Positions 15,804-33,221 of a stretch of DNA of 33,221 nt are shown in pieces. The stretch is from Bacteroidales bacterium. Lineage in GTDB: Bacteria; Bacteroidota; Bacteroidia; Bacteroidales; UBA10428. The stretch lies in NCBI GenBank assembly GCA_020354785.1, contig CP070654.1:2534654-2567874 (forward strand), given 5' to 3'. The translations under genes and the position numbers were made by a program. The notes below the pieces were generated by a model. It worked only from the letters and a program-made list of their open reading frames with translations, was not told where the DNA came from and did not search any database. Numbering within the stretch: position 1 is the stretch's first letter; the number at the start of each line of letters is the position of its first letter.

Positions 15804-15831
15804 GGGCAGTTATTTTTAACTGCCCTTTTTT
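15804..15831 (+). terminator. Intrinsic terminator after the barrel gene
   Basis: GGGCAGTTA (15804-15812) and TAACTGCCC (15817-15825) form a perfect 9-bp stem with a 4-nt loop. A T6 run follows. Confidence 0.75.
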
Positions 15832-17468: not shown

Positions 17469-20400
17469 CTATGCCCGGACTATTTTACCAGTACTTATGT
17501 ACCAGACATAGGATTCTATGCTATCATATCCCATTTCCTTTAACAGAGTTTCGTATTCCCTTACCTGATCCATATACTCCCGGCGTTCAACAGCTCCAAA
17601 CTTATAATCAACAATTGCTGCACTATTACCTTTTACTAAAACCCTGTCAGGCCGCCTTACTGAGCCGTCAGGTAAAATAATATCCTTTTCATTAAATACC
17701 TTCCAGTCTTTTGAGAACCATCCTCTGATTTGATTATTATTAATTATTTGCTCTATATCCCTGAGTATTGATTCTTTTTCAGCAAGCCCTATCTTACCAT
17801 CATTATAAACCTTTTCAACAGCCCTTTCCAAATCATCAATTGTAACTATGCCGGCAAATATTTCATGCATAATTTTGCCATAATTCAATGGCCTGGTTTT
17901 AATTTCTGTGTCCCTTACAAAAAAATCACTGACCTGGTATGCTATTCTTAGTTTCTTCCTGCTATCCACTGCCGTGTATTCATCTATCTTATTGACTGTA
18001 TATTTATCATAATCTTCCTCCGGTTTAATATTTTCAAGATCTCCATATTCAAAAACCTGATGGGTTTTACTGTAGTAATCATCAAATGACAACAAATTAA
18101 CATCATCTTTACTTAATTCTTTACTCTTATAGTCATTTGATAGAATATTAAATAATAGGTCCGATACTGTTGATATCCTGCCGCCAGCTTTGCTCCCGGC
18201 ATCACAAATACAGTACAGAGCATGGCCGGCTCTTGTAAATGCCACATATAACAGATTTAAATTAACAACATAAGATTTAATTTTCTCAGTATAATATTCA
18301 CCTGCAAAAACGGTTTCTTTCAGGTTTTGTGAATAGTTAACAGGAACGATATCCAGTTTATCAAATGGTTTCCCTGAGGGTTTGCACCATAATATTTGTT
18401 TGTTTGCATGATGATCAATACGCCAGTTACAATATGGTATTATTATTGCTTTGAATTCCAGCCCCTTTGATTTGTGAATTGTCATTATCCTGATAGCATC
18501 CTGAGCTTCAGATATTGATATGCTCTTTTTATATCCGATATCTTCCCAGTATTCCAGAAATGTATAAATATTTGATGAATTTCTATTTGAGTAGTCAAGT
18601 ATCATATCCTGAAAAGCCTGAATAAATGGTAATTCGCCCATAATATTGTTTAATGAAAACATTTCAATTAAACGTTCAACCATCTCATAAAGAGACAGGC
18701 TTTTTAAATAATCAGCAGTCTCAATAAAAGACTCCTGAAACACTTCCTTAAAAAGAGTTCTGTAATCAGCAGTAATATACTCCCCGAGTATTATTTCATT
18801 ATCTCCGGTATTGGCTTTTATATAATTAAGATATTCAGATATAATATAGTAGATGTTTATAGCATCATTTTCATTAATAAAGAACTTCAAAAGGGAAATA
18901 AGAAACTTTACAGCTGAGGAACTACTTAAGTAAAGAGATTCATCAGATACTACATCATACCTGTATTTTCCTTCTGTTTTATTATTCTTTTTATATTCAA
19001 TTAAAAAGTCTGCAATATCTTTACCCTCCTCTTTTTTCCTTGTAAGAACAGCAATATCTTTTAATTTGTAGCCTTTATCCTGTAATTCATTCAGTATGCT
19101 TACCAGATTATCCTTTAAAAAGTTATCCTCTTTATTATCTGTAAACTGAATTTTAATATAACCTTTATCTTTATTTTCACTTGTTGCACACTGCTGGCGA
19201 ATATCGCTGTAAATATTAACTATATCGTTTTTTAGTTTTTCTGCATCAGGATGAACATTAAATTCGGATAATTCACTATTAAAGTAATTTTGCAAAACCC
19301 TGGCGGCCCTTACAAAAACGGAATTATTAAAGTCAATTATATTCTTATAACTTCTCCAGTTTTTCTCAAGTGGGTATTTTTTAACACTACCGGGATAAAA
19401 ATCATTAAATACTTTCTCGGTTAATATTTCCCAGTTAGTACTTCTCCACCTGTAAATCGACTGTTTTGCGTCTCCCACTACCAGGTTGTCGTAATTCTGA
19501 GATATACTGTTATCAATCAGCGGCTTAAAATTATTCCACTGAAATCCTGAGGTGTCCTGAAATTCATCAATCATAAAATGATGATAGTAGTTGCCTGTTT
19601 TTTCGTATATAAAGGGGGCATCGTTATTTTCTATTATTTTATTCAGAAATGCTGAAGCATCACTTAACAGGAATATATTTTTTTCGCTTATATATTGAAA
19701 GATCTCCCTTGTTATATCAGATAATATACCGAGTGTATAAATGTTTGATAAAATTGTTAAGGACGTCCTGTAATATTTATAATTCATATTAAAGAAATCA
19801 AGAATACTGACCAGCAAATTATTCAATCCCTTTTCCAATATTTCCACAATCCTGTTTTTCATTTCAGATGACTGGCTGTACCATTTTTCAGGGGAATTTG
19901 CAGCCTCCAGGATCCTGGACCCTGGTTTCTGGAAATTCCGGTTAGCAAGTTTCAGGAAATATCCTGCCGGGCCGGTTTCCTTATAGCTAAAATCATTAAC
20001 AGATAGAGAGTGTGAAGATATTAATTCCAGTCCTTCAATCCCCTTTTGTTCCACGGTATTTTCAAAATGTGCTTTGATTTTATATAAATTAGAAAGATAA
20101 CTGTCAAGGAATTTCTTGTTTTTAAGCTTCTCGGAAATAATATCATCAAATTCCCTGAATTCTTCTTTGAAAATTTGTTTGCCTAATTCCAGAATTTCCT
20201 TTTTAAAATTCCAGCTTCTCCCCTCTTCGGTCCTGTCAACAGCAAATTTAATCAGCCATTCTCTTAGTGATAAATTGCTGTCGGTGTCAAGAAAAAGCCT
20301 GTCAATAGCTTCCTCAAGAACATTATCTGTATCCAGTTCAATTGTAAATCCACTTTGTATACCTATTTCACGGGTAAATGACCTGATAATCCTTTGAAAG

Positions 20401-20729
20401 AAACTGTCTATTGTGCTGACTGAAAACCTCGAATAATCATGCAATATCTTTTTCAGAATTGTGTCAGATTTATTCCTTATTGTTTTTTCCTGAAATCCGG
20501 TATGGGTTATAAGAAATTCCAGATATTTTGATTTCTGTTTTGAAGCCAGTTTGTATAACTCTCCAATTATCCTGCTTTTCATCTCCTCAGTAGCCTTATT
20601 AGTAAAGGTTACTGCGAGTATATGCCTGAAATTATCAGTTTCCCCGAATAATAATTTCAGGTATTCCTGTGTAATCCTGGTAGTTTTTCCAGAACCAGCT
20701 GATGCACAGACTATTGAAAGTTCCGACAT
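17469..20729 (-). CDS. AddA-like UvrD/Rep superfamily-1 helicase with a C-terminal PD-(D/E)XK nuclease
   Basis: It has Walker A CASAGSGKTTR, motif II MIDEFQDTS, motif VI-like TIHKSKGLEF, and the C-terminal nuclease motif RPDRVLV...AAIVDYKFG. Confidence 0.8.
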   Translation of the reverse strand: MSELSIVCASAGSGKTTRITQEYLKLLFGETDNFRHILAVTFTNKATEEMKSRIIGELYKLASKQKSKYLEFLITHTGFQEKTIRNKSDTILKKILHDYSRFSVSTIDSFFQRIIRSFTREIGIQSGFTIELDTDNVLEEAIDRLFLDTDSNLSLREWLIKFAVDRTEEGRSWNFKKEILELGKQIFKEEFREFDDIISEKLKNKKFLDSYLSNLYKIKAHFENTVEQKGIEGLELISSHSLSVNDFSYKETGPAGYFLKLANRNFQKPGSRILEAANSPEKWYSQSSEMKNRIVEILEKGLNNLLVSILDFFNMNYKYYRTSLTILSNIYTLGILSDITREIFQYISEKNIFLLSDASAFLNKIIENNDAPFIYEKTGNYYHHFMIDEFQDTSGFQWNNFKPLIDNSISQNYDNLVVGDAKQSIYRWRSTNWEILTEKVFNDFYPGSVKKYPLEKNWRSYKNIIDFNNSVFVRAARVLQNYFNSELSEFNVHPDAEKLKNDIVNIYSDIRQQCATSENKDKGYIKIQFTDNKEDNFLKDNLVSILNELQDKGYKLKDIAVLTRKKEEGKDIADFLIEYKKNNKTEGKYRYDVVSDESLYLSSSSAVKFLISLLKFFINENDAINIYYIISEYLNYIKANTGDNEIILGEYITADYRTLFKEVFQESFIETADYLKSLSLYEMVERLIEMFSLNNIMGELPFIQAFQDMILDYSNRNSSNIYTFLEYWEDIGYKKSISISEAQDAIRIMTIHKSKGLEFKAIIIPYCNWRIDHHANKQILWCKPSGKPFDKLDIVPVNYSQNLKETVFAGEYYTEKIKSYVVNLNLLYVAFTRAGHALYCICDAGSKAGGRISTVSDLLFNILSNDYKSKELSKDDVNLLSFDDYYSKTHQVFEYGDLENIKPEEDYDKYTVNKIDEYTAVDSRKKLRIAYQVSDFFVRDTEIKTRPLNYGKIMHEIFAGIVTIDDLERAVEKVYNDGKIGLAEKESILRDIEQIINNNQIRGWFSKDWKVFNEKDIILPDGSVRRPDRVLVKGNSAAIVDYKFGAVERREYMDQVREYETLLKEMGYDSIESYVWYISTGKIVRA

Positions 20730-20922: not shown

Positions 20923-21678
20923 TTATTTCAGATATTCATAATAAAAGGTGTCATATACTTCCGTATTGAACCAGTTTCTTATTTCCTTTACCGGATATCC
21001 GTCTGAATTATATTCATACTGGTATTCATAATCTGGAGGCATCATGCATGAAAGTGCGTTCTGGTGGATATATCGTAAAGGATTATTATATTGAATAATA
21101 TCAGTGGGCAGTTTCCAGTTATACCTGGGATTATTCTTATTATCATATTCATATTCACTCGTTACTAATGTAAATTGAGATTCTTCGTCCTCGCCTTCTA
21201 TCCTGGTAAGAACATTGCCTCTTGAATCATATGTATAAGTAATATCCCGTATGTCCATATCACGGTAATTTACTACTCCCGTTTCAATTTGTCCTACTGA
21301 GTTATAAGTGTATTCATTAATCTGATAAACCTGGCTGTCGCTACCATGTATATTTAATCTTATATATCTTCCATATTCATCATATTCATAGGTCTCATAA
21401 TAATCATCCGAATATTTTTTCATAACAGCTTTGCCTTCGCTATTATAATTATATGCCTCAAAGTGATAAACAGAATCATCATAATAGTGATTTACTCTTA
21501 TTAATTTCTTATTATCATTATAAATATATTCCTGATATATTTTACCATCTTTTAAAATTCTGCTCAGTAAAAATTCTTTATTAACCAGTTTGACATCTGA
21601 TGGAGCCTTTTCGCATGCCGGGAAAAGAATTACATAAACAGCAAACAAGGATAATATTGAAATTCCGGAAGGTCTCAT
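20923..21678 (-). CDS. Small lipoprotein with YD/RHS-like repeats
   Basis: The signal peptide with lipobox is LFAVYVILFPAC. YD-type repeats recur: YEYDEYGRYIRL, YTYNSVGQIETG, YTYDSRGNVLTR and YEYNSDGYPVKEI. Confidence 0.6.
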   Translation of the reverse strand: MRPSGISILSLFAVYVILFPACEKAPSDVKLVNKEFLLSRILKDGKIYQEYIYNDNKKLIRVNHYYDDSVYHFEAYNYNSEGKAVMKKYSDDYYETYEYDEYGRYIRLNIHGSDSQVYQINEYTYNSVGQIETGVVNYRDMDIRDITYTYDSRGNVLTRIEGEDEESQFTLVTSEYEYDNKNNPRYNWKLPTDIIQYNNPLRYIHQNALSCMMPPDYEYQYEYNSDGYPVKEIRNWFNTEVYDTFYYEYLK

Positions 21679-21775: not shown

Positions 21776-23338
21776 CTAAAACGGAAATTCTTCCTGGTCC
21801 TCAACTTCAAGCTTTTCGAAATATGGCTTTTCCGCCGGCTGGTGTATACTATTACCCTCAACATAAATTGCCTTGTGTGGTTCAACCGGGCAGGCATATT
21901 CACAGGCTCCGCATCCGACACATGTCGGCGGGTTTATAAAAGGTATTGTTAAATCTTCAATATATGGTACCATACTCACTGCCTGGGTCGGGCAATGTTC
22001 GGAACATGACCCGCATGCAGTTCTGTCGGTATATACTATGCAATTCTTCATAATAAAATGTACCCGTCCTATCTGTGTCAGTTTTTTTTCTTCCACGGTT
22101 AGCGGTAATATAGCTCCTGTAGGACACACATCTCCGCAAATAGTACATTCGAAATTGCAGTAATTTGTCTTATAGTCCATAAAAGGCTGCATCATACCTG
22201 TAAAACCAAATTCAAGAAATGATGGCTGCAACACTTTTGTCGGACATGCGGTAACACACAGATGACATGCTGTACAGTTATTATTGTAATGTCTGAGACT
22301 CCCTGATCCAGGCGGTGAAACAGGATTTTCCTTTTCAACAGGTATCAGCTTCTTTTCATTATTAGCCGGTTGAGACTTTGCCAGTTTTGTCAATCCGAAT
22401 AGTCCAAGTGCATATATCACAGATTTGGCAACAAATTCTCTCTTGTCCGTATCTATGGTTTCTTCCCTGGTTTTTGTCTTCTTTCGCATATCTAATTGAT
22501 ACTTAATAGCATCCTCGGGACAGGGTTTTATGCAATTATAGCAGGCAATGCAACGTGAAAAATCGACATCTAATTTTTTTATATTTATACAATTTGCCTT
22601 ACATACTGCAATACACTTTCCACACTTTGTACAGGTAGAGGGATTTATCCTGATTTTTAATATCGAAATCCTGGAAAGTAAGCCCAATAAGGTACCGACA
22701 GGACATACGGTATTACAAAATAATCTCCCGTGGTAAAAAGAAATCCATATTATAAATCCTGTAAATGCTATCGGGAACAGTGTGGTTGTCAGTTTGAAAT
22801 GCTGATAATCTACCTGGTGTACAGAGTAAATATTGAGTTTTTCCAGTAAAATGGAGACTAGGTTATTAATTCCTATTGCCGAAGGTCTTAACAGGTCCGA
22901 AGATATTCTTCCGAAGTTACTGTAAGGATCTAAAAGATTTATCAGAAAAATACTGCCAAAAATCAGGGGAATTAAAGGCAGTATAAGAAATACATACCTC
23001 AGCACATTATGAGCCCTGGCAAACTTGTATTTCTTTTTCTTTCTTATTCTTTTTGCCATGAATGATATTACATCCTGTAAAACTCCTAACGGACATACTG
23101 TTGAGCAATATACCCGGCCAAACAATAAATTCAGAATAATAATTATTAAGAATCCGATGGCAGCAAAGCCTAAAATATTTATAAACTTAATTATTGACGG
23201 AATAAACTGTAAATAAATTATAATATCGGAAACTGAAGCAGGTATTATTCCCCTGAAGTCAATAAATAGTAAAGAAATTGAAACAACAAAAACTAAAGAA
23301 ACAAATATTCTAAAAAGCTTAAGATATTTCTGAAACAT
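21776..23338 (-). CDS. Membrane-bound polyferredoxin (NapH/MauN-like N-terminal module plus multiple 4Fe-4S ferredoxin domains)
   Basis: Several N-terminal TM helices carry two CxxxCP motifs (CSTVCPLG, CNTVCPVG). Six CxxCxxCxxxC(P)-type motifs follow: CTKCGKCIAVC, CIACYNCIKPCP, CTACHLCVTACP, CTICGDVCP, CGSCSEHCP and CVGCGACEYACP. Confidence 0.85.
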   Translation of the reverse strand: MFQKYLKLFRIFVSLVFVVSISLLFIDFRGIIPASVSDIIIYLQFIPSIIKFINILGFAAIGFLIIIILNLLFGRVYCSTVCPLGVLQDVISFMAKRIRKKKKYKFARAHNVLRYVFLILPLIPLIFGSIFLINLLDPYSNFGRISSDLLRPSAIGINNLVSILLEKLNIYSVHQVDYQHFKLTTTLFPIAFTGFIIWISFYHGRLFCNTVCPVGTLLGLLSRISILKIRINPSTCTKCGKCIAVCKANCINIKKLDVDFSRCIACYNCIKPCPEDAIKYQLDMRKKTKTREETIDTDKREFVAKSVIYALGLFGLTKLAKSQPANNEKKLIPVEKENPVSPPGSGSLRHYNNNCTACHLCVTACPTKVLQPSFLEFGFTGMMQPFMDYKTNYCNFECTICGDVCPTGAILPLTVEEKKLTQIGRVHFIMKNCIVYTDRTACGSCSEHCPTQAVSMVPYIEDLTIPFINPPTCVGCGACEYACPVEPHKAIYVEGNSIHQPAEKPYFEKLEVEDQEEFPF

Positions 23339-23342
23339 ATAT

Positions 23343-24269
23343 TTAAATGGTGATTCTATTGATCTTCAGTTTATCCAGGTTTTTTGTCCCTGAGCCTAAC
23401 TCATGAGCCAAAGTAATATGCCTTACTTCTTCCGGTCTTAAGCCAAATATCTTTGTTGATGCGGCATCGGCTGCTACCATATCAGTACCTAAAACCTGGT
23501 ATTTCATTGTAACAACATCATTTACAGAAACACCTCTTGGTCCGTTTCGCTTTAGCACGCGGTAAGCATCAACAACATTAAGATCGGGCTTAATATATGT
23601 TGAAAAATCTGCAATACATTGCTGCAGGTCATTAGCATGCCACCAGCTTCTGTTCCAGACTATGCCCATCAGGTTCTTCATGCAGATTGACAGTCTTGCA
23701 CCCCCGTGGCTCTTTAATGTAGGGACATTAATAAACACATCTGATTCAAGAATGAGCTCATGTACCCTGGCATTCTTTAAAACTTTACCCCCTTTAATCT
23801 CAACAGGGTGATAATTACCCGAACTGTTACCGGCAACTATTTTACCTCCCGCCTTTTTAACCGCATCTTCAATTCCACTGTTCCTGTAACATCTTGTCCA
23901 TTCGTTGCAAGTATGATCAACTACATACACATCCTTTGCGCCTGCCATGATGCAATGTTCAACAATTCTTCCAACAAGATTTGGATTTGTATTTGCAGCT
24001 CTTTCCGGTGTTGAATCCCATCCTATATTTGGTTTTACTACAACTGTCTGATTTTTCCTGACAAACTTAGACATTCCTCCAAGGGATGCAATAGCTTTGT
24101 CAAACATAGCTTCAGGGCCTCCTCCTTTTATTGCTACAAGATCATATGGCAGGTCATCAGATTTATATTTATTAATTGCAAATAAACTCTCATTATTTAA
24201 CACAGAAATGGCTGTCCCGGCAACAACTCCTGCTCCTACTGATTTTTTTATAAACTCTCTTCTTTTCAT
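23343..24269 (-). CDS. DUF362-domain protein with a twin-arginine (Tat) signal peptide
   Basis: The N-terminus MKRREFIKKSVGAGVVAGTAISVL fits the Tat consensus (RR-x-F-[LI]-K). The core blocks TVVVKPNIGW, AGAKDVYVVDH and FINVPTLKSHGGARLSICMKNLMG match DUF362/COG2006 as I recall it. The stop is 4 nt from the polyferredoxin start. Confidence 0.7.
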   Translation of the reverse strand: MKRREFIKKSVGAGVVAGTAISVLNNESLFAINKYKSDDLPYDLVAIKGGGPEAMFDKAIASLGGMSKFVRKNQTVVVKPNIGWDSTPERAANTNPNLVGRIVEHCIMAGAKDVYVVDHTCNEWTRCYRNSGIEDAVKKAGGKIVAGNSSGNYHPVEIKGGKVLKNARVHELILESDVFINVPTLKSHGGARLSICMKNLMGIVWNRSWWHANDLQQCIADFSTYIKPDLNVVDAYRVLKRNGPRGVSVNDVVTMKYQVLGTDMVAADAASTKIFGLRPEEVRHITLAHELGSGTKNLDKLKINRITI

Positions 24270-24386
24270 TCGTCCTGTTATTTTAATTTTCTGATAATAA
24301 AATCCTTTTATGGATATTTAAAACATTCTATCTTCCTGTTTGAACCGGAAAGTTAGTTAATTTTGTAAAAACTTACTTTTAAGATC

Positions 24387-24431
24387 GAAATTTAGAAAGA
24401 ATTTAGAACGAATTTATAAAGAATTAAGATA
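24387..24431. repeat. Four phased 11-12-bp direct repeats (GAATTTAGAAA-like) in the DUF362/larC divergent intergenic region
   Basis: Consecutive units are gaaatttagaaa, gaatttagaac, gaatttataaa and gaattaagata. A separate direct repeat, GGA(A)TACTGAA, occurs at 24437-24447 and 24503-24512. Confidence 0.5.
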
Positions 24432-24544
24432 AAAAAGGAATACTGAACAATAAACATTATTTTTATTTAATAAGAAATTTTAAATAATTCCTATTTTTAG
24501 CAGGATACTGAATTATTCTCTAATAATTATCATACTTTTAGAAT

Positions 24545-25762
24545 ATGAAAATAATTTACTACGAATGTTTTGCAGGTATAAGCGGCGACATGAACCTTGG
24601 TGCAATGATTGATATTGGAGTAAAACCTGAATACCTGGTAAATGAGTTAAAGAAACTGAACGTAAAAGAATATGAACTGAAAATATCCAAAGATAAAAGA
24701 AAAGGTATATCCGGGACTAAGGTTGATGTAGTAATAAAAGGACAGAAGAAAGACACACAGCAAAGTGATAATAAACATAAACACAGGAATTTAAATGATA
24801 TCCGGCTAATAATAAATAAAAGTGATTTAAAAGACAGTGTTAAAAAACTCAGTCTGAAAATATTCGAAAAAGTAGCTAAGGCAGAAGCTATTGTGCATGA
24901 TAAAGATATGAATGAAATATACTTTCATGAAGTAGGAGCGATAGACTCAATAGTCGATATTGTTGGTGCAGCAATTTGTATTGATCATTTAAAACCTGAT
25001 AAAATATATAGTTCAACAGTTGAACTGGGCGGTGGATTTATAAATTGTGCTCATGGTACTTTGCCTGTTCCTGCACCTGCATCAGTTGAAATACTAAAAG
25101 GAAAACCAGTGAAAAAGGGCACTGTTCAATATGAAGCAACAACTCCTACAGGGGCAGCAATTCTTGCAACATGCGTCGATGAATTCACAGATAAGATAAA
25201 TTTTGTTATTGAGAAAACAGGGTACGGCATTGGGAATAAAGATGAGAATATTCCTAATGTATTAAGAGTGTATCTGGGAAGTGATATAAGCACAGAATCA
25301 ACAGAAAAAATCTCATCATCAATTGTTGAATGCAATATAGATGATATGAATCCCGAATATTATGATTATATAATTAATTCTTTGTTCAATGCAGGGGCAA
25401 AAGATGTTTTTATTACACCCATTATTATGAAAAAGTCAAGGCCGGCTGCTAAGCTGAGTATACTCTGCGATATAGGAGCGGAAAAGAATATAGAAGAGAT
25501 ATTATTTAAGGAAACTTCCTCACTGGGATTAAGAAAATATACGGTTGAAAAGATTATGCTTGACCGTAAGATAGAATATATCAAAACAAAATATGGAGAA
25601 GTAAAAATTAAATCAGCTTTTTACAGGAATAAACTTATTAAATCCAAGCCAGAGTATGAAGATTGTATAAGAATTGCAAAAGAGCAAAATATACCTATTA
25701 ATGAAGTGTACAGACTGGTTGAGAAGTTAATGAATGAAAAAGATGGAAGAATTAAAGAATAA
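24545..25762 (+). CDS. larC: Nickel insertion protein LarC (pyridinium-3,5-bisthiocarboxylic acid mononucleotide nickel chelatase)
   Basis: The N-terminus MKIIYYECFAGISGDMNLGAMIDIGV is the LarC/DUF111 signature. It also has HEVGAIDSIVDIVGA and the C-terminal LarC2-like half, all in one uninterrupted ORF. Confidence 0.9.
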   Translation: MKIIYYECFAGISGDMNLGAMIDIGVKPEYLVNELKKLNVKEYELKISKDKRKGISGTKVDVVIKGQKKDTQQSDNKHKHRNLNDIRLIINKSDLKDSVKKLSLKIFEKVAKAEAIVHDKDMNEIYFHEVGAIDSIVDIVGAAICIDHLKPDKIYSSTVELGGGFINCAHGTLPVPAPASVEILKGKPVKKGTVQYEATTPTGAAILATCVDEFTDKINFVIEKTGYGIGNKDENIPNVLRVYLGSDISTESTEKISSSIVECNIDDMNPEYYDYIINSLFNAGAKDVFITPIIMKKSRPAAKLSILCDIGAEKNIEEILFKETSSLGLRKYTVEKIMLDRKIEYIKTKYGEVKIKSAFYRNKLIKSKPEYEDCIRIAKEQNIPINEVYRLVEKLMNEKDGRIKE

Positions 25763-26552
25763 TGATAAATATAATAACCTGATTGAATATCTGAAAAAGC
25801 TTGAAAGTGTTGCTGTAGCATTTTCTGGAGGCGTAGACAGCACTTTCTTACTGGCATCTGCCAAAGAAGCATTATCTGATAATGTTGTTGCATTTACTGT
25901 CAGATCACCGTATATCCCCGACTGGGAAATTAAGGAGGCGAAAAATATTGCAAATAAGCTAAATGCACGGCATATAATCATTGACACAGAACTTAGTGAT
26001 ACAATTCTACATAATCCGGAAAACAGGTGCTATTTGTGTAAAAAATTAATTTTCACAAAGTTGAAAATTGAGGCAGGGAAGCTCTCTGTTAAATACGTTA
26101 TTGAAGGAACAAATTCTGATGACACCAAAGATTTCAGGCCAGGGATAAAAGCTTTAAAGGAATTAAATATAGTAAGCCCGCTTCTGGAAAATAAGATAAC
26201 AAAAGAAGATATAAGATATTTTTCCAGATTACTTAATCTGAAGACCTGGGATAAACCGGCTTATGCATGTTTACTGACACGAATACCCTATAACACCCGG
26301 ATTAGTGAGGAAGAACTCAGACGGATTGAAATGGCTGAAGTATTTTTAATGTCGCTCGGATTCAAAGGTGTGAGGGTAAGAAGCCATAATAATCTGGCAA
26401 GGATAGAATTAGATAAAACCCGGATTATCGAGGTTTTTCAGAACAAACTGGAAGACAAAATTGTTAACAAGCTCAAAGATATAGGTTATACTTATGTTAC
26501 AATAGATATTGAAGGATACCGGACAGGAAGCATGAATTCAAAGAAAGTTTAA
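25734..26552 (+). CDS. larE: LarE, ATP-dependent sulfur transferase for the NPN cofactor (PP-loop ATP pyrophosphatase family)
   Basis: It has the PP-loop motif VAFSGGVDSTFLL and the ACLLTR Cys motif. The start overlaps the larC 3' end by 29 nt, or by 20 nt if the ATG at 25743 is used. Confidence 0.9.
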   Translation: MKKMEELKNNDKYNNLIEYLKKLESVAVAFSGGVDSTFLLASAKEALSDNVVAFTVRSPYIPDWEIKEAKNIANKLNARHIIIDTELSDTILHNPENRCYLCKKLIFTKLKIEAGKLSVKYVIEGTNSDDTKDFRPGIKALKELNIVSPLLENKITKEDIRYFSRLLNLKTWDKPAYACLLTRIPYNTRISEEELRRIEMAEVFLMSLGFKGVRVRSHNNLARIELDKTRIIEVFQNKLEDKIVNKLKDIGYTYVTIDIEGYRTGSMNSKKV

Positions 26553-26622
26553 GAATGTTTTATTATTCTGTTTTAATAATTTTGTTTAATAAAGTATATA
26601 GCAACCAAATTTAATAATCAAG

Positions 26623-27369
26623 ATGAATCCGGAAGATTTAAAAAAGCTGTTACAAGAAGTTAAAGACGGAGAGTTAGATATTGACAAGGCACTTAACCAG
26701 CTGAGAGATTTCTCATATAAAGACCTGGGGCATACAAAAATAGATAATCACCGTGAATTGCGAACCGGTTATCCGGAAGTTATCTTCTGTTCAGGTAAAA
26801 CAGTAGAACAGGTACAGGACATCATAAGCCACATGCTTAAAAAGAAAAATAATATTCTTGCAACCAGGGCTACCAAAGAAATGTTTGATGCTGTTCAGCA
26901 AATTTGCGGTGACGCAAGATTTAACACTGCAGCAAAGACAATTACTATTAAAAGAAAAGACTTAAAAATACCTGATACTACTATTTCTGTTGTATCTGCC
27001 GGAACTTCTGATATGCCGGTTGCAGAAGAAGCAGCTGTCACTGCAGAGTTCTTCGGGAATAAAGTACATCGTGTTTTTGATGCAGGTGTTGCAGGCATTC
27101 ACCGCTTGTATGATAAATTTAAAGAGATCCGTAAATCCAGGGTAATAATTGTTGTTGCCGGAATGGAAGGCGCCCTTCCCAGTATAGTAAAGGGACTGGT
27201 TGACAAACCCGTTATTGCTGTTCCGACAAGCATAGGATACGGGGCAAATTTTAACGGCTTATCTGCCTTGCTTGGGATGCTTACAAGTTGTGCCAGCGGG
27301 GTTACAGTAGTTAATATCGACAATGGATTCGGCGCAGGATTCACTGCAAGTATGATTAATAAGTTATAA
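26623..27369 (+). CDS. larB: LarB, pyridinium-3,5-biscarboxylic acid mononucleotide synthase (PurE-like NaAD carboxylase/hydrolase)
   Basis: The PurE/AIR-carboxylase-like core is ISVVSAGTSDMPVAEEA and VVAGMEGALPSIVKGLVDKPVIAVPTSIGYG. An N-terminal LarB-specific extension is present. Confidence 0.9.
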   Translation: MNPEDLKKLLQEVKDGELDIDKALNQLRDFSYKDLGHTKIDNHRELRTGYPEVIFCSGKTVEQVQDIISHMLKKKNNILATRATKEMFDAVQQICGDARFNTAAKTITIKRKDLKIPDTTISVVSAGTSDMPVAEEAAVTAEFFGNKVHRVFDAGVAGIHRLYDKFKEIRKSRVIIVVAGMEGALPSIVKGLVDKPVIAVPTSIGYGANFNGLSALLGMLTSCASGVTVVNIDNGFGAGFTASMINKL

Positions 27370-30261
27370 ATGCCCTGCTTTTTACAGGATATTGCCGCAC
27401 AAGTATTCTCAACATATAAAGATGATCTGTCGGATATTTGCATTGTTTTTCCCAATAAAAGGGCAAGGCTTTACTTTAATAAGTATCTTTCGGGACTCAC
27501 AGACAAACCTTTATGGGCTCCTGCATACTTTACAATCAATGAATTAATGGAGCATCTATCAGGATTACAGGTTGCTGATCCTGTGACCAGGCTCTTCGAA
27601 TTATATTCATCATTTAAAAAGGTTACTCAGTCGCCTGAAAGTTTTGACAGTTTTTATTTTTATCTGGAAATTCTACTGGCAGATTTTGATGATATTGATA
27701 AAAACCTGGTTGCACCTGAAGATATTTTTCAGAACCTGGCAAAGATTAAGAATATTGAAAATTATTACGACTACCTTACTGATGATCAAATAGAAATAAT
27801 AACCAGGTTCTGGAAAACTTTTGTGCCGGCAAGTATTTCTGAAGATCAGAAGGACTTCCTGTCTTTGTGGGAATCAATGTACAATATATATGCAGCATTT
27901 AACGAAGCCCTCAGAAAAAAGAACCTCGCATATGAAGGCATGGCATACAGAGAAGTAATAAACAGGATCAATTCAAACAAATTAAACAATCATAATGCAG
28001 AAAAGTATATAATTATTGGATTCAACGCTTTAAATAAGTGTGAAAAGCAATTATTCCGTTACCTCAGAAATAAAGGAAAAGCAGAATTTTACTGGGATTA
28101 TGATGATTACTATGTGAATAACACTATACACGAGGCCGGGTATTTCCTGAGAGATAATATTAAAGAATTTCCTGCCCCTTTAAGTTCGCTGAGGCATAAT
28201 AATATCTCAAAAAAGGAAATGGAAATATCATTTATATCAGTACCATCAAATATCGGACAGGCCAAAATAATTTCCCGGTGTTTAAAGAAAATTGGAAAAT
28301 TGCAGGATATAGACATAGACAAAACAGCAATTATTCTGGCCGATGAAAATTTATTATTGCCTGTATTAAATTCAATTCCTGAAGAAATTAATGATATTAA
28401 TGTCTCAATGGGTTATCCCTTCAAAGAGACTCCTGTTTTTAGTTTTATTGCAAAATTAGTGGATATACACCGTAACAGCAGAACAGCCAGTAACGGTAAG
28501 ATACAGGTGTATTATAAAGATGTTATATCATTATTAAAACTTCCTGTTTTAATTGATATAATTCCTGAAGAGATCAGTGAACTGACTCAAAAAATAACAA
28601 GCCGGAACAAAGTATTTATAAATATTGATGATTTAAAAAGCAATGATAAACTGGCGAATGTATTTCTTGAGATAAAGGATCCTAAAAATATACCGGCTTA
28701 TATTCTAAGGATACTTGAAGTAGTAATGGATAGCTATAAACTAAAAAAGGCTGACAGCGGTTCAGAGATAAAGGTTGAACTGGATTTTATTTATCATGCA
28801 TATACTTATATACAGAGACTAAAAGAAATGTTGGAAGAGACCGGAATTGAATTTTCGGCAAATACTATATTTAAACTCCTGATCAACATTTTAAAAAAAC
28901 TAAGCATCCCTTTCAGTGGAGAACCTTTAGCAGGATTACAGGTTATGGGTATTCTTGAAACCCGCACACTGGATTTTGATAATGTAATTATTTTGTCTCT
29001 GAATGAAGGCATTTTCCCGAAATCTCATAATATACCTTCTTTTATCCCTGTTAGCCTGAGGTATGGTTTCGAATTGCCTGTACCTGAACATCAGGATGCC
29101 ATATATGCTTATTATTTCTACAGGTTAATGCAGCGCAGCAAGAATATTTTTCTTGTTTATAATTCCAGGACTGACGGACTCTTCACAGGTGAACGAAGCA
29201 GGTTCCTGCACCAGATATTTTATGAATCGGTATTTAATGTTACAGAGGAAAGCTTTTCTTATGATATTTCACCGGCAGCAAAAAAAACTATTACTGCAAA
29301 GAAGAATATCAATGAATCACATAATTTAAAAGAATATATTAAACAGGATTCAAAGATATGCCTTACACCTAGTGCTGTAAATACGTTTCTGAATTGTTCT
29401 TTAAGATTTTATTTCAGGTATATTGCAGAATTAAGAGAACCTGAAGAAGTAATCGAAGACATTGATCCTGCAATCTTCGGTTCAATATTACATAAATCTA
29501 TTAATATAATCTATAAACCTCATATTAACGACCTGATCAATAAAGATATACTGAATAAGATTGCTGAAAATAAAAGCATTTACGAATCAGCCATAAATGA
29601 TGCATTTCTTTTTGAATATTATAAAGAAAAAGACAGGAAAAATAATCCGGATATAACAGGAAGAAATCTTATTATAAAAGAAGTCATTAGCAAATATGTG
29701 AAACAGATCCTTGATATTGATATGCTTTACTCACCATTCAGGATCATCAGCCTTGAAAAGTACTACACAGCATATTTACCGGTAGAAATTAATAATAATC
29801 CTGAAAAGGTAAGGATTGGAGGTATAATTGACAGGATAGATGAAAAGGATGGAAAAATTAGAATAGTAGATTATAAAACAGGTCAGGCAGAAAATTCTTT
29901 TAAAAGTATAGATTCCCTTTTTGATGAGAAAGGTTCAGAGAGAAACAGTGCTGTTTTTCAGACTTTAATGTATTCATTAATTTACTCATATAATAACAGG
30001 GAATCAGAAATTATTCCTACCCTGTATGTCATCAGAGAAGCGTTTGCTAAAGATTTTGATTTTCGGATTATCTTACACAAGGGAAGGAAGGACAGCCAAC
30101 CGGTAAACAGTTACAGAGTATTATCCGAAGAATTCAGTCACAGGCTAAAACAAACACTTGAGGACTTATATAATGATAAGATGATATTCACTCAAACCGA
30201 TGATCCAAAGGTATGCACATTTTGCCCTTATGCCGGTATTTGTCACAAAGAGGAAGTATAA
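27370..30261 (+). CDS. AddB-like PD-(D/E)XK nuclease with degenerate helicase domains and a 4-Cys iron-staple motif
   Basis: There is no Walker A motif at the N-terminus. The C-terminal nuclease motif is GGIIDRIDEKDGKIRIVDYKTG. Cys in LNCSLRFYF plus CTFCPYAGIC (CxxCxxxxxC) matches the AddB [4Fe-4S] pattern. The ATG directly abuts the larB TAA. Confidence 0.8.
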   Translation: MPCFLQDIAAQVFSTYKDDLSDICIVFPNKRARLYFNKYLSGLTDKPLWAPAYFTINELMEHLSGLQVADPVTRLFELYSSFKKVTQSPESFDSFYFYLEILLADFDDIDKNLVAPEDIFQNLAKIKNIENYYDYLTDDQIEIITRFWKTFVPASISEDQKDFLSLWESMYNIYAAFNEALRKKNLAYEGMAYREVINRINSNKLNNHNAEKYIIIGFNALNKCEKQLFRYLRNKGKAEFYWDYDDYYVNNTIHEAGYFLRDNIKEFPAPLSSLRHNNISKKEMEISFISVPSNIGQAKIISRCLKKIGKLQDIDIDKTAIILADENLLLPVLNSIPEEINDINVSMGYPFKETPVFSFIAKLVDIHRNSRTASNGKIQVYYKDVISLLKLPVLIDIIPEEISELTQKITSRNKVFINIDDLKSNDKLANVFLEIKDPKNIPAYILRILEVVMDSYKLKKADSGSEIKVELDFIYHAYTYIQRLKEMLEETGIEFSANTIFKLLINILKKLSIPFSGEPLAGLQVMGILETRTLDFDNVIILSLNEGIFPKSHNIPSFIPVSLRYGFELPVPEHQDAIYAYYFYRLMQRSKNIFLVYNSRTDGLFTGERSRFLHQIFYESVFNVTEESFSYDISPAAKKTITAKKNINESHNLKEYIKQDSKICLTPSAVNTFLNCSLRFYFRYIAELREPEEVIEDIDPAIFGSILHKSINIIYKPHINDLINKDILNKIAENKSIYESAINDAFLFEYYKEKDRKNNPDITGRNLIIKEVISKYVKQILDIDMLYSPFRIISLEKYYTAYLPVEINNNPEKVRIGGIIDRIDEKDGKIRIVDYKTGQAENSFKSIDSLFDEKGSERNSAVFQTLMYSLIYSYNNRESEIIPTLYVIREAFAKDFDFRIILHKGRKDSQPVNSYRVLSEEFSHRLKQTLEDLYNDKMIFTQTDDPKVCTFCPYAGICHKEEV

Positions 30262-30943: not shown

Positions 30944-31160
30944 AATACTCTTTTCTCCTGGAATTATTATTAAAATCTGTCTCAGACATATAATTACTAG
31001 TAAAAAACTTTGACTATTAGCTGTTAATGTATATTTTCGTAGTCTAATATTAAAAATCAATCATTTGAAAGACTAATAGCAGAGCGCTACGGTCGATAAT
31101 GAACCATTAATCTCTGTTCTTAAAGAACAATTCAGCGAAATTAATTAAAATGCTGAAAAT

Positions 31161-33221
31161 ATGAAGAAGTCTGAAACGTTAAATAAGAAATCTGCTGTTC
31201 TAGTTAAGGATAGTAAGAATATGAAGGAAGAAGAAACAGATAATCCAAAAAAGAAAGATGTTAAGGATTCCAGGTCCTTAAAAGAGAAAGAGTCTAAGCC
31301 AGCTTCCAAAGCTAAGACTAAGAGCAAGTCAGCCTCCGGTTCAAAGACTGCCTCCACAGACAAAAAGTCAAAATCAAAAAAACCTGCCGAAACAAAAGCT
31401 AAAACTACAAAGAGTACAGCAGTAAAAAAACAGGATAAAACCAGTAAGAAGGCTGTCAAAGAAAGTGTGGAAGAACAAAAGGAATCAAAAGACATAGAAC
31501 AGGTATTACCTGAAGACAGGAAAGTAAAAGAAGATAAAAAGACACAAGTACCTGAGGATAAAAAGCAGGAAGATGAGCAGAGAGAGGAAATTATAGACTA
31601 TTCATCCTTAAGTAAGAAAGATCTGGTTGATACGCTTAAGGATATTATCGATAACAAATCTGTGTTGCATATAAAGAATGACGTAGAATTAATAAAAACA
31701 AATTACTATAAAAAACATAAAGCCGATGTTGAGAAAAAGAGGAAGAATTTTTTAAAGGAAGGAGGTGACATTGAAGATTTCAAGGTGGAAGAGGATCCTC
31801 TGGAAAAATTACTCAAAGAATATTTAAAAAAATACAAGGAGATAAAGGCTGAATATAATAAGAAACTGGAAGATGAGAAGCAGGACAACCTGGATAAAAA
31901 ATACCAGATAATTGAAGAAATTAAAGATCTTGTAAATAGGAAGGAATCAATAAATAAGACTTTTCACGAATTCAGGGAATTACAGAAACAATGGAGATCA
32001 ATCGGGCTGGTCCCTCAACAAAATGTTAAAGATTTATGGGAGACCTATCATCACCATGTTGAAGCCTTCTATGATTACATAAAAATCAATAAGGAATTAC
32101 GAGACCTGGATCTTAAGAAGAATCTTGAGTTAAAAATTGAGTTGTGTGAGAATGCCGAAGAGTTATTATTAGAGCCAAATATTATTTCAGCATTTAATGA
32201 ACTGCAGAAATTGCACGAACAGTGGCGTGAGATTGGCCCTGTGCCTGCCGATATGAGAATTGAGATCTGGGAAAGATTCAAAGAAACGACTTCAAAAATA
32301 AATAAGAAACACCAGGAATACTTTCTTAACTTAAAAAAAGAACAGAAGAAAAATCTGGAGGCTAAAAGCGTATTATGTGAAAAGGTTGAGGAGATAAATA
32401 GCCTCATAATTTCAAGTCATAAGGAATGGGAAAACAAATCGAATGAAATAATAGAGCTTCAGAAGGTATGGAAAACAATAGGATTTGCCCCTAAAAAAGA
32501 CAATAATAAAATCTATAACAGGTTTCGTGCAGCATGCGATAACTTTTTTAATAAAAAACGTGAGTTCTATTCACAAAACAGAGAACAACAAAATGACAAT
32601 CTGCAGTTAAAAACAGATCTGTGTGTCCAGGCTGAGGCATTCAAGGACAGTGATGAATGGAAAAAAACTACAGAAGAACTTATCGCTCTGCAAAAAAGAT
32701 GGAAGGAAATCGGACCAGTACCATATAAACATTCTGATAGAATATGGAGAAGATTCAGACAAGCCTGCGATAAATTCTTTGAAAGAAAAGAGACTTATTT
32801 CTCCCAGATTGATAATTCTTACGAGCAAAACTTAAAGAAGAAGGAAGAATTGATAAAAAAAATTGAAAAATTAGCTCTAACTGATAAGGTGGAAGAATGT
32901 TTAAAAAAATTAAAAGAATTCCAGAGAGAATGGGCCGAAATAGGTTTTGTCCCATATAAAAACAAAGATGAAATCCAGGATAAATACAGGAATGCAATCA
33001 ATAAGAAGTTCGATGAATTAAATGTAGATGAAAACCGGAAGAATATCCTCAAATTCAAAACAAAACTGGACAACCTTAAAGGTAAGCCAAATGGTATCCA
33101 GAGAATAAGACAGGAGCGGGATAAATATGCCAGCAAACTTAAACAACTTGAGAATGATATTGTGTTATGGGAGAATAATATAGGTTTATTTACAAAAAGT
33201 AAAAATGCAGAATCAATGATT
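31161..33221 (+). CDS. DUF349-repeat protein (3' end outside the window) with a Lys/Ser/Glu-rich N-terminal tail
   Basis: This ORF is absent from the track because no stop lies in the window. I translated by hand from the ATG at 31161, and the frame stays open for 687 codons to the window edge. DUF349 units recur, such as FRELQKQWRSIGLVPQQNVKDLWETYHHHVEAFYDYI, LHEQWREIGPVPADMRIEIWERFK, LQKVWKTIGFAPKKDNNKIYNRFRAACDNFF, LQKRWKEIGPVPYKHSDRIWRRFRQACDKFF and FQREWAEIGFVPYKNKDEIQDKY. Confidence 0.85.
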   Translation, partial: MKKSETLNKKSAVLVKDSKNMKEEETDNPKKKDVKDSRSLKEKESKPASKAKTKSKSASGSKTASTDKKSKSKKPAETKAKTTKSTAVKKQDKTSKKAVKESVEEQKESKDIEQVLPEDRKVKEDKKTQVPEDKKQEDEQREEIIDYSSLSKKDLVDTLKDIIDNKSVLHIKNDVELIKTNYYKKHKADVEKKRKNFLKEGGDIEDFKVEEDPLEKLLKEYLKKYKEIKAEYNKKLEDEKQDNLDKKYQIIEEIKDLVNRKESINKTFHEFRELQKQWRSIGLVPQQNVKDLWETYHHHVEAFYDYIKINKELRDLDLKKNLELKIELCENAEELLLEPNIISAFNELQKLHEQWREIGPVPADMRIEIWERFKETTSKINKKHQEYFLNLKKEQKKNLEAKSVLCEKVEEINSLIISSHKEWENKSNEIIELQKVWKTIGFAPKKDNNKIYNRFRAACDNFFNKKREFYSQNREQQNDNLQLKTDLCVQAEAFKDSDEWKKTTEELIALQKRWKEIGPVPYKHSDRIWRRFRQACDKFFERKETYFSQIDNSYEQNLKKKEELIKKIEKLALTDKVEECLKKLKEFQREWAEIGFVPYKNKDEIQDKYRNAINKKFDELNVDENRKNILKFKTKLDNLKGKPNGIQRIRQERDKYASKLKQLENDIVLWENNIGLFTKSKNAESMI

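Follow-up and report, generated by a model that had tools for sequence, protein, structure and literature searches.

A possible periplasmic nickel-pincer oxidoreductase module: larC, larE and larB divergent from a Tat-signal relative of LarA and its polyferredoxin

The window, by which we mean the whole 33,221-nucleotide stretch that was analyzed, contains a five-gene block in which larC, larE and larB on the plus strand stand back to back with a minus-strand unit encoding a DUF362 protein and, 4 nt downstream, a polyferredoxin (Table 1). The divergent layout had been described in an earlier note on this DNA, and its coordinates proved exact throughout. The family assignments made there also held: LarC matched TIGR00299 at 215 bits (cut-off 90), the LarC2 model NF052512 at 149.5 bits and PF01969 at 498.6 bits; LarE matched TIGR00268 at 321 bits (cut-off 150); LarB matched NF033503 at 301 bits (cut-off 175); and the DUF362 protein matched PF04015 at 174.5 bits (cut-off 24). 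LarE has Cys residues at positions 99, 102 and 179, and its CXXC...C motif assigns it to the non-sacrificial enzymes that depend on [4Fe-4S] (PMC9283937). Searching all six frames of the window found no LarA/DUF2088 relative, and neither another oxidoreductase candidate nor an aldo-keto reductase is present in it.

Table 1. Features of the larCEB/DUF362/polyferredoxin block (positions in the window)
Feature	Position	Strand	Remarks
Polyferredoxin	21776-23338	-	520 aa
Internal twin-arginine-like motif D-K-R-E-F-V, residues 298-303	22430-22447	-	Precedes fifth hydrophobic segment
DUF362 protein	23343-24269	-	308 aa; PF04015
Putative cofactor-site segment encoding H188, K198, H211	23637-23708	-	Alignment to LarA His174, Lys184, His200; codons checked
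Twin-arginine signal peptide, residues 1-31 (MKRREFIKKSVGAGVVAGTAISVLNNESLFA)	24177-24269	-	RRxF conservation
Divergent promoter region	24270-24544		275 bp, AT-rich, common to both units
Candidate operator/promoter element TCTAAATTCTTTCTAAATTT	24388-24407	-	~120 nt upstream of DUF362 start
larC	24545-25762	+	Fused LarC1+LarC2 form; nickel-inserting cyclometallase
larE	25734-26552	+	ATP-dependent sulfur insertase with CXXC...C motif
larB	26623-27369	+	NaAD carboxylase/hydrolase

Orthologous divergent spacers measure 88 to 312 bp, and Rfam gave no match in the 275-bp spacer of the window. An exact TTAGA-N5-TCTAAA sequence occurs in 6 of 165 loci, always 105 to 125 nt upstream of DUF362. The window copy, TCTAAATTCTTTCTAAATTT, has two mismatches and by itself would not reach significance; this candidate element is significant solely through its orthologous position.

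The DUF362 protein begins with MKRREFIK, the twin-arginine signal previously read there. Of 82 orthologues, 82 have R3, 81 have R4 and 82 have F6, and outside RRxF the N terminus varies. A Tat-like motif is likewise found in 99 of 114 diverse DUF362 relatives. In the AF2 model (pLDDT 81.6), residues 1-37 are disordered. Despite the strictly conserved Tat signal, the protein contains no conserved Cys motif or other recognizable cofactor site.

DUF362 and DUF2088, the LarA family, both belong to Pfam clan CL0471 (PMC11770544). The earlier note had asked for a structural comparison of DUF362 with LarA. When the window model was compared with the PDB by Foldseek, 18 of 18 significant matches were LarA-family structures (E = 6e-6 to 3e-4), and the significant matches of a second DUF362 subtype were also all LarA-family. 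The PF04015 model in turn matched Lactiplantibacillus plantarum LarA (E = 5e-5). DUF362 is a sister family of LarA, and the statement that the window has no LarA-like ORF is right for canonical DUF2088 and wrong for DUF362, itself LarA-like. The DUF362 protein gave no match to LarA sequence models and has neither the LarA C-terminal domain nor an equivalent of LarA His108, and the lack of this His makes two-base racemization unlikely.

Residues D177, H188, K198, G202 and H211 of the window protein share alignment columns with LarA D163, H174, K184, G189 and H200. The H211-His200 match is ambiguous, with MAFFT supporting it and hhalign not, and it is a match of aligned sequence rather than of positions in three dimensions. 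We take LarA Lys184 to be the cofactor tether (through a thioamide), His200 to be a nickel ligand and His174 to be the catalytic His. [quoted passage not shown] A cytoplasmic DUF362 type into which a 2x[4Fe-4S] ferredoxin domain is inserted, present in Sporomusa, Clostridium and Methanomassiliicoccales, provides a bridge to this alignment: its spacing, H-x9-K-x15-H, is exactly that of LarA, its motif reads HxxAGFxGxxK, and its alignment to the Tat type has a probability of 95%. It belongs to the same family as the window protein, with the same conserved D...K.H...KN...H signature, and both pair a LarA-like site with clusters, which in the ferredoxin-insert type follow directly after the His200 equivalent. 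Unlike the window protein, this type has no signal peptide, carries its clusters within the same polypeptide and is mostly found away from lar genes (not adjacent in three of three look-ups), one exception (L088) also having the nickel transporter NicO.

The polyferredoxin is polytopic and has the two CxxxCP motifs (C78 and C208) and, for the approximately six 4Fe-4S motifs counted earlier, six four-Cys groups, two in its N-terminal half and four in its C-terminal half. Its description as NapH-like fits only one half. The whole is a fusion of a NapH-like membrane module (two CxxxCP and two [4Fe-4S] motifs) to a NapG/NapF-like module (four [4Fe-4S] motifs) with an internal Tat motif, an architecture known from a class that needs both Sec and Tat; NCBIfam matches to NapH, NapF and NapG were partial and far below the curated cut-offs. 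Across 71 orthologues the consensus of the internal motif is S-[RK]-R-x-F-[LI]; the second-position R is present in 69 of them and F in 57. Tat dependence of this architecture was established by experiment for the polyferredoxin of the delta proteobacterium MLMS-1 (Q1NSB0; Tooke et al. 2017, PMC5449189), which shares with the window protein the NapH-like module, containing two CxxxCP motifs and clusters on the cytoplasmic side, a twin-arginine motif right before the last transmembrane segment, and a NapG-like domain of four clusters for which a periplasmic location is predicted. The two differ in their Cys groups (six, versus seven predicted for MLMS-1) and in the motif itself (K-R versus R-R). 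The class originates from the NapGH quinol dehydrogenase, whose partner is nitrate reductase, whereas the window polyferredoxin is partnered by a DUF362 protein; the 2017 paper does not discuss a partner for the MLMS-1 protein (PMC5449189).

DUF362 and polyferredoxin genes are adjacent in 79 of 81 orthologous loci, and both exceptions lie at contig ends. Linkage to larBCE, which the earlier note had proposed to look for, is conserved in one part of this set. Of the 81 DUF362 loci, 17 (15/48 Bacteroidota and 2/3 Pseudomonadota) have lar genes at a distance of no more than 10 kb, against a rough chance expectation of ~0.4 that assumes one larC per 4-Mb genome, a 20-kb interval and independent loci. 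The other 64 have none within that distance, among them all 30 from Ignavibacteriota (21 loci), Desulfobacterota (7 loci), Kryptoniota and Chlorobiota. Within the close clade, six of six additional look-ups were linked. Four gene orders were seen. The Tat-type pair is divergent from larC-(larE)-larB in Bacteroidota; it forms a single-strand DUF362-PolyFd-LarC-LarE-LarB cluster in Competibacteraceae (L037 and L068), with gaps of 25-108 bp and unrelated housekeeping genes on its flanks; and at L092 DUF362-PolyFd-LarB is divergent from LarC. In the fourth, LarC-LarE-LarB-NicO-DUF362 (L088), the DUF362 protein is of the cytoplasmic ferredoxin-insert type and there is no polyferredoxin. Compared with L001, the five-gene block of the window is inverted relative to its flanks and therefore moved as a unit. 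At three Bacteroidota loci (L010, L013 and L033) the flanking synteny is kept and the lar cassette is missing.

Viewed from the lar side, 80 loci around LarC contained no canonical LarA; among Bacteroidota LarA is rare, being present in 9 of 192 genomes. Six of the 80 loci had a DUF362 family member and three had a fusion of an aldo-keto reductase with a ferredoxin domain. Nickel/cobalt transporters (NicO, CbiQ/CbiO-type) are common neighbors of LarC, and most DUF362-polyferredoxin loci stand alone, with neither lar genes nor nickel transporters. The lar genes are themselves often scattered (larE is missing in 9 of the 15 linked Bacteroidota loci, and no larB is nearby in 57 of the 80 LarC loci), so non-adjacency says little.

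We propose that these five genes work together as a single functional module producing a cofactor-loaded, Tat-exported, periplasmic and quinone-linked NPN oxidoreductase, a proposal for which we judge the chances to be even. DUF362 would take up NPN in the cytoplasm, with K198 as tether, H211 binding nickel and H188 catalytic by alignment, and, being already folded around its cofactor, would be exported by Tat. In the periplasm it would dock on the polyferredoxin's NapG-like domain with its four clusters, which would cross the membrane by way of the internal twin-arginine motif, and the NapH-like membrane half would join the cluster chain to the menaquinone pool. The activity would most likely be that of a dehydrogenase, in which hydride is taken from a small periplasmic substrate (candidates are a hydroxy acid, a sugar or a formate-like donor) and electrons pass to quinone. 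A flavin is normally required where a hydride, with its two electrons, is handed on to iron-sulfur clusters that take one electron each; no flavin is evident, which counts against the oxidoreductase proposal. The 64 loci without nearby lar genes, the missing match to LarA models, C-terminal domain and His108 equivalent, and the method-dependent H211 match also weigh against it. The literature searched contained no paper proposing DUF362-polyferredoxin as an NPN oxidoreductase; if the proposal is true, this would be a previously undescribed nickel-pincer enzyme exchanging electrons with the respiratory chain. The earlier idea of the pair as a new NPN client class gains from LarA homology, the aligned residues and lar linkage recurring in several orders and two phyla. 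Further points in favor are the Tat signal on a protein with no recognizable cofactor site, the scarcity of LarA in Bacteroidota and its absence around LarC, and the lack of another oxidoreductase candidate in the window. Such a client would not represent a new fold, since DUF362 belongs to a branch of the LarA fold that is sister to LarA itself.

The genes might instead be neighbors with no shared function, which we think possible but doubtful. The pair would then work as a periplasmic redox module with a different cofactor or with none, larCEB would serve a client elsewhere (a canonical LarA or an NphT-like aldo-keto reductase), and the linkage would be synteny that a single Bacteroidales clade inherited, with co-transfer from time to time. 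The 64 unlinked loci, the two well-sampled phyla with no linkage, the syntenic loci lacking the cassette and the usual separation of the cytoplasmic subtype from lar genes all fit such an account; non-LarA NPN clients are proven (PMC13524815), and the aldo-keto reductase-ferredoxin fusion in the L088 cluster is a plausible NphT-like one. Mere adjacency sits less well with a linkage that outlasts several rearrangements and spans phyla, or with so compact a cluster amid unrelated genes in Competibacteraceae. DUF362 is also the sole neighborhood family that is homologous to a known NPN enzyme and has its cofactor-binding residues by alignment, and the scattering of lar genes weakens the argument from unlinked loci.

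Two further accounts keep a tie to the cofactor. DUF362 could bind NPN or a precursor without catalysis, as a carrier, storage protein or sensor or for delivery to a periplasmic partner, and the aligned tether Lys and nickel-binding His, together with the missing substrate domain and His108 equivalent, would agree with this; we consider it improbable, as near-universal pairing with a six-cluster electron-transfer protein favors redox turnover over storage and the equivalent of the catalytic His174 is invariant. Very improbable, in our estimate, is that the pair serves the Lar pathway, for example in periplasmic nickel handling or by supplying electrons for cofactor synthesis. CcoG, a metal reductase, is among the NapH-family relatives, and nickel transporters are common beside LarC; however, cofactor synthesis is cytoplasmic, the predicted location of DUF362 and of four of the six clusters is the periplasm, and most loci of the pair lack lar genes and nickel transporters. 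Expression studies in E. coli with other lar genes already lead one to expect that this larCEB set would make NPN and activate LarA normally in a host without the pair (PMC11796402).

The LarA family is no longer the only group of characterized NPN clients, as the earlier note had it. NphT, characterized in 2026, is an NPN-dependent hydride transferase of the aldo-keto-reductase fold (Semersky et al. 2026, PMC13524815), and the same paper cites an ornithine cyclodeaminase that uses a dinucleotide form of the cofactor (PMC13524815). NphT was discovered by the same logic, from genes adjoining larBCE at loci without LarA, and its cofactor is Lys-tethered and His-bound, for which DUF362 has counterpart residues by alignment. 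Unlike DUF362, NphT is an unrelated TIM-barrel, is cytoplasmic and has no electron-transfer partner.

With LarA (lactate racemase superfamily, DUF2088: Lar_N PF09861 plus LarA_C PF21113; e.g. PDB 5HUQ) DUF362 shares its Pfam clan, the sole significant fold matches, residues aligned with His174, Lys184 and probably His200, and adjoining larB, larC and larE. DUF362 departs from it in lacking a LarA sequence-model match and the C-terminal substrate domain, in its Tat export to the periplasm, and in its obligate pairing with an iron-sulfur protein for electron transfer; this pairing suggests net redox chemistry and not isomerization. Formate dehydrogenase-N and the uptake [NiFe]-hydrogenase are Tat-exported periplasmic respiratory dehydrogenases and offer an architectural analogy. 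The module has no molybdopterin or NiFe site and no heme b subunit, and its putative catalytic subunit has a LarA-like fold; by analogy, it would share with these enzymes a cofactor-loaded Tat-exported catalytic subunit, a ferredoxin subunit with several clusters and a connection to quinone in the membrane.

Every coordinate and spacing in the earlier note's map of the block was confirmed, and the larC/larE/larB set that it had called complete is so, with all three products scoring above their NCBIfam equivalog cut-offs. The divergent DUF362 protein scores 174.5 bits on PF04015, far above the cut-off of 24 (residues 76-272, model positions 1-199/200). We found no other oxidoreductase candidate encoded across the 33 kb; Aldo_ket_red (PF00248) was absent from all window ORFs of at least 110 aa, and an Rfam search of the window returned no riboswitch and no other RNA. 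The window LarE carries a CXXC...C motif (Cys99, Cys102 and Cys179), which likens it to the [4Fe-4S]-dependent, catalytic LarE of Thermotoga maritima (PMC9283937) and sets it apart from L. plantarum LarE with its single sacrificial cysteine, despite the word 'sacrificial' in the NCBIfam name.

Coordinates of features in the window and, where a locus (L) is named, in homologous loci from the genome and metagenome scans
Feature	Location	Strand	Remarks
Polyferredoxin	21776-23338	-	520 aa
DUF362 protein	23343-24269	-	308 aa; 4 nt upstream of polyferredoxin
Divergent spacer, DUF362/LarC			275 bp
LarC	24545-25762	+	NCBIfam LarC1 215 (cut-off 90), LarC2 149.5 (cut-off 50)
LarE	25734-26552	+	NCBIfam 321 (cut-off 150)
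LarB	26623-27369	+	NCBIfam 301 (cut-off 175)
UvrD-type helicase	17469-20729	-	
PD-(D/E)XK nuclease	27370-30261	+	
Predicted lipoprotein	20923-21678	-	251 aa
Lys/Glu-rich ORF	~31150-33221	+	>690 aa; continues past right window end
WbqC-like gene (PF08889)	15830-16489	-	
WbqC-like gene, other loci	L001:6229-6876, L092:5433-6065		and 12 more loci
Palindrome, window copy	24388-24407		2 mismatches
Palindrome, other loci	L001:9894-9909, L002:434-450, L003:7102-7118, L005:9877-9893, L006:9876-9892, L033:9900-9915		
~170-aa membrane protein	L051:2913-3431		also L012, L023, L047, L050
Extra DUF362 paralogues	L072:8046-8984, L076:6674-7828		Geopsychrobacteraceae, Ignavibacteriaceae
Split polyferredoxin ORF	L166:10927-12487		long-read MAG contig
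Split DUF362 ORF	L169:8902-9832		long-read MAG contig
LarC cluster with DUF362	L088:7442-15175		one strand
Aldo-keto reductase-4Fe-4S fusions	L088:7442-8548, L147:8785-9945		

DUF362 (PF04015) and DUF2088, the N-terminal domain of lactate racemase (LarA), belong to one Pfam clan, CL0471, and LarA trees are rooted in the field with DUF362 sequences as outgroup (PMC11770544). The earlier note had stated that no LarA-like ORF occurs in the window. For canonical LarA this stood: using the L. plantarum sequence (identical to PDB 5HUQ) as query, a six-frame search gave no match in the window or in 81 orthologous loci, and phmmer gave zero matches in the window. It did not stand for LarA-like proteins as such, since the DUF362 protein is itself LarA-like by clan and by fold. 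When its AlphaFold2 model (pLDDT 81.6, pTM 0.82) was subjected to the structure comparison that the note had proposed, all 18 PDB matches with E <= 1e-3 were LarA-family (E 6e-6 to 3e-4, TM-score normalised to the query 0.40-0.48, 229-293 aligned columns), and below them the score dropped sharply to unrelated folds. The Pfam DUF362 model also matched L. plantarum LarA (E = 5e-5, residues 82-245). Neither Lar_N (PF09861) nor LarA_C (PF21113), both of which match L. plantarum LarA, matched the window DUF362 even at E <= 10, and the window protein is without the LarA C-terminal domain. Sequence searches of the PDB with the DUF362 protein and with a narrow profile gave nothing useful; the local match between a narrow alignment (A1) and a single LarA sequence in hhalign proved spurious, and broader alignments were required.

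A second type of DUF362 protein, cytoplasmic and with an inserted 2x[4Fe-4S] domain (the ferredoxin-insert type), aligns to the type with a Tat signal found in the window (the Tat type) at 95% probability and, judged from such alignments, is a bridge between the Tat type and LarA. Its own AlphaFold2 model had a pLDDT of 65, weakest around the putative site, and the LarA matches of this model are only supportive. The model for the 'Npun_F2552 family' (NF052623), cyanobacterial by name, scored 74.9 bits on the window DUF362, sub-threshold to its cut-off of 500.

We compared the residues that hold the cofactor in LarA, where Lys184 is the thioamide tether, His200 supplies the remaining nickel ligand, and the acid/base pair consists of His108 and His174 (PMC12611868). 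A profile of 114 diverse relatives aligned window D177...K186-x-H188...K198-N199 with LarA D163...H174...K184. At the level of alignment, K198 falls on the tether Lys184 in hmmsearch, hhalign and MAFFT, and all 82 orthologues have this lysine. The joint MAFFT alignment puts H188, K198 and H211 in the columns of His174, Lys184 and His200, and hhalign puts H211 on His217 with an insertion. Conservation of the three residues reaches 81-82 of 82 orthologues and ~95% of the diverse relatives (n = 114), with H188 invariant. The ferredoxin-insert type has a histidine exactly at Lys+16, as in LarA; its motif, H-E-M-A-G-F-G-G-A-I-K...(15)...H, has spacing identical to LarA H174-F-F-A-G-F-S-G-G-R-K184...(15)...H200. 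The position of the second catalytic histidine, LarA His108, is N122 in the window, and relatives have D or N there. That only one catalytic histidine of the pair is left speaks against racemisation and fits one-directional hydride transfer.

The window DUF362 is predicted to be exported. The twin-arginine signal that had been read in it, MKRREFIKKSVGAGVVAGTAISVL, does have an S/T-R-R-x-F-L-K-type motif and a hydrophobic region, and its RRxF is invariant across 82 orthologues; the Pfam TAT_signal model gave no match on the window protein but did match a DUF362 paralogue in L072, one of two loci where an extra paralogue lies just upstream of the DUF362-polyferredoxin pair. The polyferredoxin likewise contains the two CxxxCP motifs and six four-cysteine groups attributed to it. 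Sub-threshold NCBIfam matches cover residues 201-289 (NapH) and 291-498 (NapG and NapF). The NapH/MauN models (TIGR02163, NF007013) scored 90.5 and 88.6 bits, below cut-offs of 213 and 234, and the NapG/MauM models (NF007012, TIGR00397) scored 54.4 and 52.5 bits, below cut-offs of 269 and 179; because the NapH motif architecture is present but the score is below cut-off, we call the protein NapH-like rather than NapH. Its NapG-type features are four of the cysteine groups and a twin-arginine-like motif, here internal (S-[RK]-R-x-F-[LI], residues 298-303, conserved in a 71-orthologue alignment), with a hydrophobic segment and then basic residues behind it. By its motif order, the protein is a NapH-NapG fusion with a twin-arginine motif right before the last transmembrane segment. 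Tooke et al. (2017) described such a fusion, inserted by Sec and Tat, as a 'polytopic polyferredoxin'; it requires Tat for its last transmembrane segment and C-terminal domain, and that study names no partner for it (PMC5449189). On these grounds the DUF362 protein is predicted to be periplasmic, as is the half of the polyferredoxin that carries four clusters, and the NapH-like half would reach the quinone. Two long-read MAG contigs have a split ORF, one for the polyferredoxin and one for DUF362, through a frameshift in the assembly or through decay of the module.

The most likely reading, to which we give roughly even chances, is that DUF362 is a Tat-exported oxidoreductase loaded with the nickel-pincer nucleotide (NPN) built by LarB, LarC and LarE. 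NPN synthesised in the cytoplasm would be joined to K198, the holo-protein would then be exported by Tat, and the exported enzyme would exchange electrons with menaquinone via the six clusters. A difficulty for this reading is that the two electrons of a hydride would have to be divided among one-electron clusters with no flavin evident. On thermodynamic grounds, substrate oxidation feeding the quinone seems favoured, since hydroxy-acid/keto-acid couples lie below menaquinone; the reverse electron direction, by analogy with NapGH, is possible.

The main rival, which we consider less likely, is that the DUF362-polyferredoxin pair is merely adjacent to the lar genes and shares no function with them. 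We scanned one genome per species with DUF362 and kept the best 80 of at least 594 species matches, which with one look-up gave 81 loci. The polyferredoxin directly follows DUF362 in 79, the remaining two being at contig ends, and LarC and/or LarB lie within 10 kb of DUF362 in 17, where chance would give ~0.4 (assuming one larC per 4-Mb genome and independent loci, which in fact they are not). These linked loci belong to Bacteroidota (15/48) and Pseudomonadota (2/3, both Competibacteraceae); there were none in Ignavibacteriota (0/21), Desulfobacterota (0/7), Kryptoniota (0/1) or Chlorobiota (0/1). The diversity of gene orders is a stronger argument for the linkage than this number. Bacteroidota have larC-(larE)-larB divergent from DUF362. 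In Competibacteraceae a single strand carries DUF362-PolyFd-LarC-LarE-LarB, the genes separated by 25-108 bp and the cluster flanked by a CBS-domain gene and polA; and if L001, a homologous locus, is taken as reference, the five-gene block of the window is inverted with respect to the flanks. Linkage was present in 6/6 further close-clade loci, and 17 contigs were apparently common to the best-120 match lists of DUF362 and LarC.

The synteny survey that had been proposed thus found recurrent linkage, but lar genes are missing from the vicinity of most orthologous loci, and this favours mere adjacency. So does the lack of the lar cassette in three loci (L010, L013 and L033), though the flanking WbqC-like gene is kept directly beside DUF362. 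The ferredoxin-insert type had no lar neighbours in Sporomusa, Clostridium or Methanomassiliicoccus (0/3), so it gives no synteny support beyond a single metagenome locus, L088. The lack of adjacency carries little weight, since lar genes often lie dispersed; larE was missing in 9 of the 15 linked Bacteroidota loci, and 57 of 80 LarC loci had no larB nearby. LarA itself was found in 9 of 192 Bacteroidota genomes, which makes a canonical larA elsewhere in this genome unlikely on prior grounds.

Starting from LarC, we scanned metagenomes and kept 80 loci (36-60% identity). Around LarC, canonical LarA occurred in 0/80, a DUF362 family member in 6/80, and an aldo-keto reductase with a fused ferredoxin domain in 3/80; a homologue search with LarC gave Bacteroidales only among the matches listed. 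A third gene order was found in L092 (DUF362-PolyFd-LarB divergent from LarC) and a fourth in L088 (LarC-LarE-LarB-NicO-DUF362, of the ferredoxin-insert type). The LarC-linked aldo-keto reductases fit in with the recent description of members of this family that depend on NPN (PMC13524815). In L088, the genes LarC to DUF362 are preceded on the same strand by an aldo-keto reductase-ferredoxin fusion and a metallo-beta-lactamase-fold gene, which would bring two candidate NPN clients, that is, enzymes using NPN, together; the database protein identical to the L088 DUF362 is assigned by NCBI to a Firmicutes MAG. Aldo-keto reductases with a C-terminal 4Fe-4S domain adjoin LarC in L088 and L147, with a clustered homologue in L091 (itself unannotated), and look like an iron-sulfur-linked version of the NPN-dependent enzymes.

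Several features of the surroundings recurred. In six loci a palindrome, TTAGA-N5-TCTAAA, precedes the DUF362 start by 105-125 nt; it occurs at no other place among 165 loci, and the window has a copy at the same position. It is often followed by TTTG, resembling a Bacteroidetes -7 box, and is a possible operator of the DUF362 unit or of the two divergent units together; L033 has the palindrome but no lar cassette. The block is flanked by an AddAB-like helicase/nuclease pair pointing apart, an arrangement also present in L168, and the nuclease start codon abuts the larB stop (27369/27370), so the nuclease may be co-transcribed with larCEB. The WbqC-like gene follows larB in most Bacteroidota loci (gap of 3-90 nt in L092 and L001), which may reflect lineage synteny or make it a sixth member of the module. 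In 15 loci, mostly of Ignavibacteriota with some Bacteroidota and none of them with nearby lar genes, a divergent gene 60-175 nt upstream of DUF362 encodes a ~170-aa membrane protein without a Pfam or NCBIfam match, possibly a small transporter. Directly downstream of the window polyferredoxin is a predicted Tyr/Asn/Asp-rich lipoprotein with no family match and a very weak YD-repeat hint, which occurs in L168 and is otherwise not a conserved neighbour. The Lys/Glu-rich ORF at the right end, whose counterpart in L168 is a DUF349 protein, accounts for the strong A-skew of that region and seems unremarkable.

DUF362 comprises thousands of proteins in Bacteria and Archaea. We raise, tentatively, the broader idea that the whole of DUF362 is a second, redox-active branch of NPN enzymes in which pincer hydride chemistry is wired to iron-sulfur clusters. 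The branch would include the Tat type, the ferredoxin-insert type, whose insert immediately follows the equivalent of His200, and perhaps the Npun_F2552-like cyanobacterial family. If true, this would explain many larBCE genomes without larA, and these would be the first NPN enzymes to feed an electron-transport chain and the first to work outside the cytoplasm. NPN synthesis without LarA occurs in ~15% of surveyed genomes, and Cyanobacteria are reported to have larBCE with LarA mostly absent (PMC11796402), so the Npun_F2552 family may merit a look as their missing client.

The missing NPN clients are an active problem, and the first client fold other than LarA was published in 2026 (PMC13524815). 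This locus offers a concrete candidate, directly testable in published E. coli cofactor-loading systems: a large family homologous to LarA, with residues aligned with the cofactor-binding ones and an iron-sulfur carrier as partner. Confirmation would give DUF362 a cofactor, would add respiratory-type redox catalysis to an NPN chemistry that so far comprises isomerisation and hydride shuttling, and would mean Tat export of an organometallic nickel cofactor. The literature that we searched contained no proposal of DUF362 as a cofactor client and no mention of a periplasmic NPN enzyme. The lar genes, the DUF362 label, the polyferredoxin class and the clan relationship between DUF362 and LarA are already known; what is new here is where this LarA-fold relative is predicted to reside, which partner it has and, probably, what chemistry it carries out.
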